Sequence record: PV340549
Origin: Escherichia phage PhiR12_1
Strand: one strand, 5' to 3'
Length of the DNA stretch: 54,435 nt
Each line of letters starts with the position of its first letter. Position 1 is the first letter of the stretch. A program made the position numbers and the translations under genes. Under the pieces are notes generated by a model. It ran no database searches. It saw only the letters and a list, made by a program, of their open reading frames with translations, and was not told where the DNA came from. Of the stretch, positions 74 to 54,294 are shown piece after piece.

Positions 74-93
74 CACGTGCATTTTACGTGCAT
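74..93 (+). promoter_or_regulatory. tandem octamer motif cACGTGCAT-TTT-ACGTGCAT (candidate integrase arm-type site)
   Basis: Exact 20-mer cacgtgcattttacgtgcat also occurs at 54275-54294 near the other prophage end, same orientation. Confidence 0.35.
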
Positions 94-283
94 ATTGTAG
101 TACCTCTAACGTCCTGATTCTGTCCAACATTTTGAAGTGTTTAGGCGCCACTGGGGCGGTGATTAGCACTGTTTTGTGCTGTTCATAGCACTTCAAGACT
201 ATTCAATTCAGAGCAATCGTTGAAGAATTACCCGTAAGGTAATATCATACTATTTAGATAACTGCGGTTATCACCATCAAGGG

Positions 284-317
284 CCACTGATGACGCTGTT
301 ATCATCAGTGGCTTTTT
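284..317 (+). terminator. Rho-independent terminator-like hairpin
   Basis: Stem ccactgatga (284-293) / tcatcagtgg (302-311), 8-nt loop, followed by cttttt. Confidence 0.55.
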
Positions 318-359
318 GTACCTTCACTGCACAGCCAGTGAAGTGTTGAGGAGACTAGC

Positions 360-701
360 ATGAGAACAGTAGCGAGAAGATCGATACAGACGATTGAGCG
401 TCGGACTCAACTCGTCAGTTCTTTTGTTGACTCAAACACAGCAAACGAGTTCTTCGTGAGAAGACTGAGTGATCGAGTCTCCCCGGCACGTCAGCTGTTT
501 ATTGTGACATTGAACAATGAGGTTCGTGACGGTGACGTGATCCCGTTTGCTGAGATCGCCATGAACAAAGAAAAATTGCGCTATGTTGTGAAGCCAGCAG
601 ATCAGTATCCTCAGTATGTAAGCAGTAATCTGCTGAAGAAAATTGAAGCGGCAATTGCTCTATACATGCAGAAGAACTACAGGGAAATTAACTACCATTA
701 A
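360..701 (+). CDS. hypothetical protein (att-proximal cargo gene 1, 113 aa)
   Basis: ORF with RBS gaggag 6 nt upstream of ATG; preceded by hairpin 322-343; no family recognised. Confidence 0.55.
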   Translation: MRTVARRSIQTIERRTQLVSSFVDSNTANEFFVRRLSDRVSPARQLFIVTLNNEVRDGDVIPFAEIAMNKEKLRYVVKPADQYPQYVSSNLLKKIEAAIALYMQKNYREINYH

Positions 702-712
702 AAGGTTGCTGA

Positions 713-1479
713 ATGGCTCCTGCGTTAATACCTTCATATAACAAGGACTTGAACATCACGCCATTTGGCGAAAAACGTCTTATTGAGTCATTCTATTTTT
801 TCACTGCCGAGGCTGGCTTACTGAGGGCTGATGAGTACATTGTCAGTTCTGGTGAGTTTCAGTACTACTTGGATGTGTATCAACTGGGATGTTCCACCGA
901 CGACTTTTTTTAGACTATGGCAGTGACCTTCTTGATTCGAAGGTTCCAATGCAGGATCTGGTCAATACCCTCTTAGGTCTTGATATGGTAGACGATAACA
1001 AAACGATAAGAATAGGTCGTATACAGTTCAACGACTTTAATTTTATCGAAGAGAACGGTCAGATGATGACCGGAAAGCAAGTGAAAAGCGCTGTTATCGC
1101 ACAGGATTTCCAATCAGCAGGTTTGGCGCGTGAGATCTATAAAATGCTTGCGCGAAAGCATGAGTTTCTCATCTGCGATAACATTCAAAGTATTGCCGGT
1201 GGTGCTCTTTGGGCCAGTAGCATCATTCGAATTGCCGAGGTACGGATCTACAATTCACGCACGAAGAAATTTATGGACATACTTGGTCCAGGTGCGCGTG
1301 GTGTTTCAGGTACTTTGCCATGGAGTGCGAATGATCTGTCTGTAGATGAGATTGTTCGCTGGGGTCGTGCGTATGATGATGAAAACTGTTGTCGTCACAT
1401 TGTACATGTTATCTGTAAGGACCGACTCATTGACGAGCAATTTCATGATTATGTTTCGATAGGTGGCGCGACAGAATAA
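713..1479 (+). pseudogene. hypothetical protein gene split by frame change at a T7 tract (713-913 in frame 2, 889-1479 in frame 1)
   Basis: Two overlapping ORFs; a one-base gain in the T run 905-911 (or -1 slippage) would fuse ...STDDFF to LDYGSDLL... giving about 255 aa. No family recognised. Confidence 0.5.
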
Positions 1480-1485
1480 CCATCA

Positions 1486-1514
1486 AAAAGACCCGGCATT
1501 TGCCGGGTTTTTTC
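1486..1514. terminator. bidirectional Rho-independent terminator between convergent genes
   Basis: A-run, stem cccggc (1492-1497) / gccggg (1502-1507), T-run 1508-1513; sits between the stop of the 889-1479 ORF and the int stop. Confidence 0.7.
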
Positions 1515-1520
1515 TTCAAA

Positions 1521-2699
1521 TCACTTCTTCATTCCAGCTTCCATTGCGGTTTTCCCGTCGTATTCAGCCAGGTATTTACCGTAATTGCGGAACAGCATTT
1601 CCGGCCCCTTATGCCCCATCTGCCCGGCAAGCCAGAAAAGGTTTACACCCTGGCTAATGTGTCTGGTGGCGAATGTGTGGCGCGTCTGGTACGGGTTACG
1701 GTAGCGCACACCAGCTTTTTTCAGGGTCGGTACCCATGCTTTTTTACGGATAGCGTCGGCGTTCGTCCAGGGGTCTCCCGTTTTCGGATCGCTGAATATG
1801 AACTCACTTTTCATAAAGGTGTATTGCTTCTGCGCCTGCAGGGCCGCCAGCGCCTCACTGTTCAGCTCCACCTTACGGGTACCGGCTTTTGTCTTGGTGC
1901 CTTTAAGTACCCCTACGACACTGGCCGCCTGTATGTGCGCTGTATTACCTATAAAGTCGATATCGGTCCAACGTAATGCGCATAGCTCAGAGCTGCGTAG
2001 CCCTGTATTGAAGGCGAAGCGGAACAGATTCTGCCATTCCTGATACTTGCAGTGCTGATATATGGCACTGGTTTCCGCAGGCGCAAACGGATCAACTTCG
2101 TAATCGTCGGCGTTCGGTTTACTGTCGACCACGTGATACCGGCTGGCGCTGACAAGAGTTACCGGGTTAATAGTCAACAGGCCATCAGTTACAGCCTCAT
2201 CAATGGCGCTGCGCAGAAATGACAGGTTATTCCTGATTGTTTTCAGCTTAGTTTTTCGGCTGGCTATCCAATTTTTTAGTACCGCAGGCGTCAATTCTGT
2301 TACATGTAGTTTATGTAGTTCTGATAGTGCTGATAGACATTTTTCGTAACCGCCAATGGTTGACGGCGACAGATTGCGGTTCATGCAAATTTTCAGGTAT
2401 TCATCAAGATAGGACTTAATATTTTTGGTTTTCTTTACTACACCGAATAACTCCAATTTTTTGGAACTGGGGAAATATTTCGCATATTCAAACGTTCCGC
2501 TGGCGATCTGATTTTGTATCTCCCCTAGCAGGCGCTCAGCATATTTAATACTACGTGTATTTGCCTCAAGCCGAGACAGGGGCTCCCTGCAAAGAACCCC
2601 TTTATATGTGAAAGTGATAACTAGTGTTGAAGCAGTTTTATGCTTACGAATAGTTACTCCTCTTGGCAGAGATAATAATCCTTGTTCTTTCTTGCCCAT
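1521..2699 (-). CDS. int: tyrosine-type site-specific integrase
   Basis: 392 aa; C-terminal catalytic region with RHTFATRH, LAGQMGH and RNYGKY (R-H-R-Y signature); adjacent to the att repeat. Confidence 0.9.
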   Translation of the reverse strand: MGKKEQGLLSLPRGVTIRKHKTASTLVITFTYKGVLCREPLSRLEANTRSIKYAERLLGEIQNQIASGTFEYAKYFPSSKKLELFGVVKKTKNIKSYLDEYLKICMNRNLSPSTIGGYEKCLSALSELHKLHVTELTPAVLKNWIASRKTKLKTIRNNLSFLRSAIDEAVTDGLLTINPVTLVSASRYHVVDSKPNADDYEVDPFAPAETSAIYQHCKYQEWQNLFRFAFNTGLRSSELCALRWTDIDFIGNTAHIQAASVVGVLKGTKTKAGTRKVELNSEALAALQAQKQYTFMKSEFIFSDPKTGDPWTNADAIRKKAWVPTLKKAGVRYRNPYQTRHTFATRHISQGVNLFWLAGQMGHKGPEMLFRNYGKYLAEYDGKTAMEAGMKK

Positions 2700-53091: not shown

Positions 53092-53179
53092 TTGCTGAAA
53101 GTGACATGAAGTATGACGGCAGGCGCAGGACTCTGGTCTGCCGTTTTTCATGGGGCATAAAAAACAGGAAGGTGCTGCG

Positions 53180-53653
53180 ATGAAGGTGATTCTGGCGACC
53201 AGGAACCGCTATCTGGAGTATGGTCTGCAGGCGTTACTGAAGGAACACAGTGTGATACTGGCGAGGGAGTTTTTCCTGCCGGAGAACCGCCGTTATATCC
53301 CGGACTTTGACGAATCCTGGCTGATAATCAGTGATGGCCTGCTGGGCAGGCTGATGCGCTGTATGTTCCAGGGGCGTCATTTTCTGCAACTGGATGCGGA
53401 GTTGCTCCGTGATGGTGAGCAGATAAGTGATGCCATACACAACGGCGTCTGGACGTATAACAGTGCTGCCCGCCCGCTGACGATGTCAGAGATGGTGGTG
53501 ATGTTCGGTTATGTCTACCGCCAGTCGAGACCCTGCCGCCTTGCCAGTGAGATGGGTATTAACACGAAGACGGTGAATACCTTTCTGTATACGGGAATGG
53601 CGAAAAACGGGCTGTATGGTGTGAGCGTGAAACATCTTGCGTGTGCGGAGTGA
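53180..53653 (+). CDS. putative transcriptional regulator (LuxR/GerE-like C-terminal HTH)
   Basis: aggaagg RBS before MKVILATRN...; C-terminal LTMSEMVVMFGYVYRQS..RLASEMGINTKTVNTFLYTG resembles a LuxR-type HTH; assignment tentative. Confidence 0.45.
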   Translation: MKVILATRNRYLEYGLQALLKEHSVILAREFFLPENRRYIPDFDESWLIISDGLLGRLMRCMFQGRHFLQLDAELLRDGEQISDAIHNGVWTYNSAARPLTMSEMVVMFGYVYRQSRPCRLASEMGINTKTVNTFLYTGMAKNGLYGVSVKHLACAE

Positions 53654-53699
53654 TTCAGTGTTACCGGACCTGCAGCGTCTTCAGGTGATTCAGGGGCAG

Positions 53700-53831
53700 A
53701 TGATGAATAAAGACAAATGCCGTATGTACGGGAGAAAACGTTATACAGCGGGAGCAATGTGCTTCATGCTGTTTGTGTGGCTGGGTGGTGTGGTGACACT
53801 CTGTGCCGTTGCTGCAATTATCATGCAATAA
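53700..53831 (+). CDS. small hypothetical membrane peptide
   Basis: MMNKDKCRMYGRKRYTAGAMCFMLFVWLGGVVTLCAVAAIIMQ; weak RBS. Confidence 0.25.
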   Translation: MMNKDKCRMYGRKRYTAGAMCFMLFVWLGGVVTLCAVAAIIMQ

Positions 53832-53867
53832 AAAATGGGGAGTAAGTTAACTCCCCGTAAAGAAGAT

Positions 53868-54116
53868 TTACCGAATAAACCAGTCGTCCGCGGTTTCCCA
53901 GACTTCCTTCAGCGTTTCCTGAACGAACTTTTGAGCAGACTCTTTATCCACGGATCTTAAAATTGTCAGTCCATCATTGCTGGCAGATTTTACGATCACA
54001 TCTACATCATCATAACGTTTACTGACACGTCGCAGCATCTCTTGCTGCAGGGCAGGAACAGAACCGGTTGGCATTTTAGTCATTTTCTCTTTGGCTATGC
54101 AGATTTCAATACGCAT
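53868..54116 (-). CDS. dinI: DinI-family protein
   Basis: 82 aa; MRIEICIAK...[15 protein letters not shown] parallels E. coli DinI (MRIEVTIAK...QETWESADDWF, recalled); gaggga RBS; LexA boxes upstream. Confidence 0.8.
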
Positions 54117-54129
54117 AAAAATCCCTCTA

Positions 54130-54177
54130 CACTGTGTTTGTATACAGTGTTATTTTTAACTGTATGGATAAACAGTA
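54130..54177 (-). promoter_or_regulatory. two LexA (SOS) boxes in the dinI-like promoter
   Basis: caCTGTgtttgtatACAGtg (54130-54149) and aaCTGTatggataaACAGta (54158-54177), both CTGT-N8-ACAG. Confidence 0.65.
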
Positions 54178-54274
54178 TCAAGGAGAAGGAACGCCAAGAG
54201 GTGATGTGTTTTTGTTACTATTAGTTACAAACAGAAAAAAACCAGACCGTGAGATCCGGGGGGCTTTTAAAGTG

Positions 54275-54294
54275 CACGTGCATTTTACGTGCAT
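54275..54294 (+). promoter_or_regulatory. tandem octamer motif cACGTGCAT-TTT-ACGTGCAT (second copy)
   Basis: Identical 20-mer to 74-93, about 100 bp inside the ssrA-proximal att core. Confidence 0.35.

Follow-up and report, generated by a model that had tools for sequence, protein, structure and literature searches.

Predicted arm-type integrase sites on both attachment arms of an ssrA-integrated lambdoid prophage and their co-variation with the integrase N-domain

The stretch of DNA analyzed here, 54,435 nucleotides (nt) from Escherichia phage PhiR12_1 (PV340549) and hereafter the window, is occupied by a lambdoid prophage that lies between two copies of the 3'-end sequence of ssrA, the transfer-messenger RNA (tmRNA) gene. 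The ssrA 3' end, which is identical to the annotated tmRNA gene beside prophage CP-1639, is the insertion site; ARAGORN called no tmRNA in the window because the gene is truncated by the window end. The left attachment (att) repeat starts 11 nt left of the window, as seen in the E. coli C lysogen record PhiR12_5, and the prophage is 100% identical to phages PhiR12_2, PhiR12_4 and PhiR12_5. A 27-bp identical block (54387-54413) is common to the left att copy and the ssrA end, and this block must hold the crossover. Near the left end lie the genes of a tyrosine integrase (Int) and an excisionase (Xis), and the minus-strand dinI gene (53868-54116) lies near the right end. Our subject is a 20-mer, CACGTGCATTTTACGTGCAT, that stands inside both ends of the prophage and that probably represents the arm-type sites of this integrase (Table 1).

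The 20-mer occurs exactly, on the + strand, near the left end and at 54275-54294. The initial annotation had described such a pair, identical, in the same orientation, close to the att cores and inside the prophage, and this description holds: the left copy begins 58 bp past the end of the identical att block (window 1-16), and 92 bp separate the right copy from the tmRNA 3' end at 54387. When up to three mismatches are allowed, the 19-mer ACGTGCATTTTACGTGCAT matches at these two sites alone, where shuffled sequences predict 0.01 matches, and all four exact occurrences of the 8-mer ACGTGCAT in the 54-kb window fall within the two 20-mers. The repeat finder shows that the likeness between the copies ends just past the 20-mer (28 nt at 89%), so the pair is a discrete element and not a piece of a long duplication. 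The earlier description of the repeat unit requires amendment, however. Since the bases ahead of GTGCAT differ among relatives (CAC, CAA, CAG, CGA, GCGC), the conserved unit is the GTGCAT hexamer rather than the 8-mer. Three further features had been overlooked: an inverted third unit, GTGCAC, which in the window is present on the right arm only and creates a 10-bp palindrome, TGCACGTGCA; the hairpin potential of the right arm; and an adjoining array of GTCY units.

Table 1. Attachment-site features, recombination genes and candidate protein-binding sites in the window
Feature	Position	Strand	Details
Left att copy, partial duplicate of ssrA 3' end	1-25	none	1-16 identical to 54398-54413
IHF-like site TAACCAATTGAAT, one mismatch to YAANNNNTTGATW	32-44	none	Consensus match by eye; between core and left units
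Left-arm 20-mer, predicted Int arm-type sites	74-93	+	Direct GTGCAT units at 77-82 and 88-93, 11-bp period
Continuation of left array, candidate Xis or weak Int sites	100-125	+	GTAC at 100 (GTCT in most relatives), GTCC at 111 and 122
Tyrosine integrase, 392 aa, Arm-DNA-bind_2 (DUF3596) N-domain	1521-2699	minus	Type-discriminating V27, L36, R43
Excisionase (Xis), 69 aa, overlaps int start	2654-2863	minus	PHROG 2917 excisionase, E = 2.5e-41
Terminator-like hairpin followed by T7 run, between right arm and dinI promoter	54242-54259	minus	Terminator scan
Right-arm element, predicted Int arm-type sites	54272-54294	+	Inverted GTGCAC at 54272-54277; direct GTGCAT at 54278-54283 and 54289-54294
Right phased GTCY array, candidate Xis sites	54301-54337	+	GTCT at 54301, 54312 and 54323; GTCC at 54334; off-phase GTCA at 54328
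Two GTCC units 11 bp apart, adjoining core	54363-54377	+	Conserved in both integrase groups
ssrA (tmRNA) gene 3' end, truncated by window end	54387-54435	minus	Match to CP-1639 ssrA

The integrase possesses, besides its core-binding and catalytic domains, an N-domain of an arm-binding family. This N-domain matches Pfam Arm-DNA-bind_2 (PF12167, E = 3e-21), and Phage_integrase (PF00589) is also matched. In the AlphaFold model, the N-domain comprises strands at residues 15-19, 24-32 and 35-41 and a helix at 48-67, with a predicted local distance difference test (pLDDT) score of about 80; the full-length model is of moderate quality (pLDDT 69.5, predicted template modelling score 0.40) and was used for the secondary structure of the N-domain alone. 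The top structural matches of the Int model in Foldseek were Tn1549 Int and full-length lambda Int. Integrases with a DUF3596 domain were classified by Smyshlyaev et al. (2021) as the 'IntBPP-1' subgroup, described as putative integrases with a canonical arm-binding fold (PMC8138268). The assignment of Xis comes from PHROGs; no Pfam family matched this protein.

In related phages, the attP site can be read without interruption. In LMessi, whose Int is 90% identical, the order is CACGTGCATTTCACGTGCAT, 92 bp, the ssrA-like core, approximately 57 bp, CAAGTGCATTTTAAGTGCAT and the 3' end of int, and circular phiES15 has the same layout, with the right 20-mer, the core and the left 20-mer following each other. 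A repeated motif unlike the core is thus found on both arms outside the crossover in the attP sites of LMessi, phiES15, phiNP and LLS, as well as at the prophage ends in the window. Phage phi467 was rejected as a source of arms, its int being 92% identical but frameshifted and having no ssrA core within 600 nt, and an apparent right arm in Kp4866-6 was part of an adjacent P4-type island.

We scanned IMG/VR (2.9 million viral contigs) together with one genome per species, which yielded about 120 loci encoding related integrases. Measured from the core, the first GTGCA of the left arm stands at 74 nt in 84 of 90 cases, and the whole set falls at 73-75 nt. Among 22 non-redundant representatives of the left arm (<90% identity), the two GTGCAT units carried 1.96 and 1.84 bits and the core 1.87 bits, against 0.60 bits in the spacer; the units match the core in conservation. 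Right arms were gathered with a pattern free of the motif (120 loci, 65 distinct), and all of the distinct arms nevertheless bear the motif in one of two forms, type A, with GTGCAT-like units, or type B, described below. On the right, a spacing of 98 bp between the second unit and the tmRNA end recurs in 83 of 87 arms, comprising 34 of 35 distinct arms of type A and 49 of 52 of type B. Type A and type B right arms differ by 11-bp insertions and deletions at different arm positions; these cancel, and the tandem units therefore stay 98 bp from the tmRNA end.

That the two copies are a chance match or the functionless leftover of a neutral duplication is barely credible. In favor of this explanation, the window has no more than two copies, and their repeat unit is short and in part a palindrome; it is contradicted by the expectation of 0.01 matches and by the occurrence of the motif at fixed positions, within scrambled flanks, in Escherichia, Enterobacter, Serratia, Erwinia, Proteus, Xenorhabdus, Providencia and Gilliamella. 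The motif is also strongly confined to att arms. In the 1.96 Mb examined, 126 of 127 occurrences of tandem GTGCAY-N5-GTGCAY were at arm positions, and the sole occurrence elsewhere was a palindromic Providencia arm on the opposite strand. The initial annotation had taken abundance of the motif elsewhere in the host genome as evidence that would speak against arm-type sites; in IMG/VR, all 15 exact 19-mers are in att arms adjoining the tmRNA 3' end. A single copy of the right arm occurs in each of 117 complete E. coli genomes out of 5426, and the matching RefSeq genomes carry no annotation over it. In one of the IMG/VR loci, from an A+T-rich host (L256; 2873643457_000004, approximately 3173-3310, minus strand), the exact 19-mer is followed by GTCA, GTCT and GTCA at 11-bp spacing. 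There, the array stands 123 bp before the tmRNA end and the tmRNA similarity stops after TGGTGGAGCTGGCG, which points to a shorter identity block.

The type B arms provide a natural comparison. Sister integrases approximately 67% identical to the window Int, found in phiNP, LLS and prophages of Kosakonia, Yersinia, Mangrovibacter and Tolumonas, are associated with a different tandem pair, CGG[C/A]TC[C] or CGTATC[C], which occupies matching positions on each arm and keeps the 11-bp period. GTGCAY is kept in Serratia, Erwinia, Proteus, Xenorhabdus ehlersii, Providencia and Gilliamella, whose integrases are 59-72% identical to the window Int and as distant from it as those of type B. The motif type follows the N-domain. 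Integrases with V, I or Q at position 27 and L or C at position 36 have type A arms (66 non-redundant pairs of N-domain and left arm), and those with N27 and K or R36 have type B arms (19 pairs); motif type and N-domain type agree in 85 of 85 classifiable pairs, none is crossed, and two further pairs are degenerate but A-like. Across the whole Int alignment, only four columns separate the types, namely 27, 36 and 43 in the N-domain and 90 in the linker. Residues 27 and 36 would share a face of the sheet with the invariant T25, T29, T31 and R38, a placement that we infer from strand alternation in the AlphaFold model, not from computed contacts. Relatives in Celerinatantimonas (49-52% identity) had no ssrA core within 2.5 kb and therefore added no third specificity class.

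One pair of loci separates the domains of Int from each other. L109 (X. santafensis, type B) and L105 (Xenorhabdus ehlersii, type A) are 85% identical in the catalytic region and 65% in the N-domain, whereas the N-domain of L109 is 81% identical to that of phiNP. For both the catalytic region and Xis (77% identical), the nearest counterpart of L109 is L105, despite the opposite motif types, and no column of the Xis alignment separates type A from type B. The exchange in L109 and the lack of a discriminating Xis column together indicate that the motif tracks the N-domain of Int rather than the catalytic domain or Xis. The two loci look like a natural swap of a module comprising the arm-binding domain and the arm sites.

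These observations also bear on the possibility that the 20-mers are binding sites for Xis and not for Int, which we regard as very unlikely. Directionality factors do bind tandem, helically phased direct repeats, and an xis gene is present; yet the absence of any Xis signature for the motif type, including in the L105-L109 pair, argues against this assignment, as does the presence of the 20-mer motif on both arms, the Xis sites of lambda being confined to one arm, between P2 and the core (PMC4880445). A second family of repeats fits Xis better. Beyond the GTGCAT pair, both arms run on, in register and in the same orientation, into 11-bp-phased GTCY units. Both integrase groups conserve these units, and the right-hand series falls between the arm units and the core. 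Like Xis, the GTCY array is thus maintained in either group, which makes it a better candidate for the Xis sites than the 20-mers. On the left, the GTCY units are distal to the GTGCAT units. The IHF-like motif of the left arm, TAACnnnTTGAA, carries 1.26 bits against the 0.60 bits of the spacer, and the IHF and phased GTCY assignments are pattern matches only.

The right arm can further form, on the + strand, a 12-bp hairpin followed by T7 (terminator scan, 54269-54297; run TTTGTCTTTT). The corresponding RNA fold has an energy of -16.7 kcal/mol (z = -5.7) and is followed by U7, and the counterpart in LMessi reaches -13.2 kcal/mol (z = -4.9). Type B right arms have a 14-bp palindrome and a T-run at the equivalent place, and this palindrome, GGAGCCGCGGCTCC, occurs as GGAGTCGCGACTCC in three loci (L052, L141 and L169), a compensatory double change that keeps the symmetry. 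The right-arm element might thus be read as an intrinsic, Rho-independent + strand terminator that guards ssrA from antisense read-through, with the resemblance of the left copy being secondary. The stem and T-run, their recurrence in LMessi and the compensatory variant in type B arms all favor this reading. However, the left copy has no significant fold (z = -1.5 and -0.8), such that a hairpin with a U-run is found at the right copy only, and most left arms (CAAGTGCAT...) disrupt even the short stem, yet their GTGCAT units are as conserved as the core. A terminator also leaves unaccounted for both the co-variation with the N-domain and the fixed distances to the core. Moreover, a minus-strand terminator-like hairpin with a T7 run lies immediately upstream, and no + strand gene transcribes into the right arm, since dinI is on the minus strand. 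We consider it unlikely that termination is the primary explanation of the element, and a terminator role and Int binding could coexist at the right arm.

We therefore return to arm-type sites. The presence of an arm-binding N-domain, the flanking of intact attP cores by the motif, its conservation as islands at fixed distances and its co-variation with the N-domain all agree with the proposal of the initial annotation that the two 20-mers derive from the two arms of attP; judged from sequence, they are probably the arm-type sites of a heterobivalent tyrosine integrase of the lambda style. From the observed anatomy, conservation, fixed spacing and co-variation, we infer the actual binding of Int, the roles of the sites in integration versus excision and the Xis and IHF assignments. 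Several points weigh against this interpretation. The hairpin accounts for the stable fold of the right arm and for the compensatory change in type B no less well than protein binding. Both arms also bear a second family of conserved motifs, GTCY, whose type B form is similar to the main units in that each ends in TCC. Part of the association between motif and N-domain could reflect linkage, because int and xis are co-inherited with the arms in a single module, and the independent switches are few, essentially one split between A and B plus the exchange in Xenorhabdus. Finally, our literature search found no paper that maps arm sites in the IntBPP-1/DUF3596 subgroup.

If the 20-mers are arm-type sites, the free phage would carry them on either side of a 27-bp core copying the ssrA 3' end, within an attP of approximately 250 bp. 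Each Int protomer would read one GTGCAT unit through its three-stranded beta-sheet N-domain, with adjacent units brought to the same helical face by the 11-bp period. These protomers would hold the core with their catalytic domains, so that Int would bridge arm and core over protein-induced bends, which would be provided on the left by the IHF-like site and on the right by the phased GTCY array, probably bound by Xis. Integration would then leave one 20-mer at each prophage end in the same orientation, as is seen in the window.

This arrangement resembles that of lambda in several respects. Short repeats unlike the core stand on both arms of an attP of approximately 250 bp; the tandem units of the int-proximal arm repeat at roughly one helical turn; a candidate IHF site lies between the core and the arm sites, and the distal arm has a candidate Xis array on the core side of its arm sites; and the integrase N-domain has three strands and a helix. 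The left 20-mer is analogous to the P' arm of lambda and the right element to the P arm. The motif differs, being GTGCAT here and C/AAGTCACTAT in lambda. The N-domain belongs to Pfam PF12167 rather than to the family found in lambda, and the ssrA 3' end serves as core. On the distal arm, an inverted unit abuts the direct ones and completes a palindrome, and the same extended array stands in register on both arms; the present sites are, moreover, predicted from sequence. The arm-type sites of lambda attP, P1, P2 and P'1-P'3 (Ross and Landy 1982), are reviewed in PMC4880445.

Among other systems, the IntBPP-1 subgroup shares with the window Int the DUF3596/PF12167 arm-binding domain and gamma-proteobacterial phage hosts, and BPP-1 Int itself is 33% identical to the window Int by tblastn; PMC8138268 classifies these proteins and describes no arm sites. 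The integrases of Tn916 and Tn1549 offer the closest solved catalytic-domain structures, with an N-domain that reads DNA in the same beta-sheet style, but these are conjugative transposons with DR2-type arm sites and a loose choice of target, whereas the phage has an ssrA-specific core. The cluster K mycobacteriophages likewise integrate at tmRNA and have arm-type sites predicted from repeats (PMC3203893); these are actinobacterial phages.

A more far-reaching view is that the attP of the DUF3596 integrase family is not a simple copy of that of lambda, and combines an Int-Xis co-filament, a terminator and a three-residue code; taken as a whole, we find this combination doubtful. Both arms have the same array of five to six 11-bp-phased units, two of GTGCAT followed by three to four of GTCY, and an Int-Xis co-filament could form on both. 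The distal copy might in addition terminate transcription and so insulate ssrA. A code of three residues (27, 36 and 43), swapped naturally as a module apart from the catalytic domain and Xis, might set arm specificity. If true, such a code would be a ready-made system for reprogramming arm recognition.

The ssrA site is also occupied by stacked elements. In five IMG/VR loci (L014, L016, L032, L052 and L054), a type B right arm adjoins a type A left arm over one ssrA core; these are tandem prophages of both arm specificities stacked at ssrA. Many other loci have an island with a P4-type integrase as neighbor. Adjoining right and left arms in IMG/VR contigs were accordingly not counted as same-phage pairs, many being tandem prophages of mixed type.

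The surroundings of the two arms in the window contain further features. Between the left arm array and int lie two cargo open reading frames (ORFs) of unassigned function (360-1479; PHROG 2594 and PHROG 3307), whereas in LMessi int directly adjoins the arm; the cargo was therefore inserted just outside the predicted attP boundary, at approximately 135. At the other end, two LexA-box-like palindromes of the form CTGT-N8-ACAG (54130-54178) stand just upstream of dinI on the minus strand, which suggests that the prophage dinI adjoining the att arm is under SOS control. A gene with a YadA-type anchor is located at 52012-53091; the DNA downstream of it, starting at 53100, matches the ORF-156/ORF-60 region found in the P-Eib phages of ECOR-9, and the gene therefore likely encodes an Eib immunoglobulin-binding protein. 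An IS21-family element (48228-50530), consisting of an IstA-like ORF (513 aa, with rve and Mu-transposase-C domains) and IstB, is found a short distance downstream of a collagen-repeat tail-fibre gene (46470-48032). A direct repeat of 300 nt (98% identical; 16118-16417 and 40818-41117, 24.7 kb apart) corresponds to the P22_AR_C C-terminus that two antirepressor-like genes have in common; their N-termini are ORF6N and Bro-N.

Arm-type sites set whether and in which direction a temperate phage recombines, and a mapped set is available for just a few integrases. The predicted sites are an element of an ordinary kind, and none was found described for the DUF3596/IntBPP-1 subgroup in the literature searched. 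Members of this subgroup include prophages that target ssrA, carry an Eib-like gene and are related to the Stx1 prophage CP-1639. Our comparison yields exact candidate sites and a minimal attP of approximately 250 bp, which may be of use in annotating prophage ends, in explaining the stacking of tandem prophages at ssrA and in building orthogonal integration tools. Its most useful product is a testable prediction, namely that three residues would determine arm specificity, a falsifiable proposal for which nature offers two specificities on one core.

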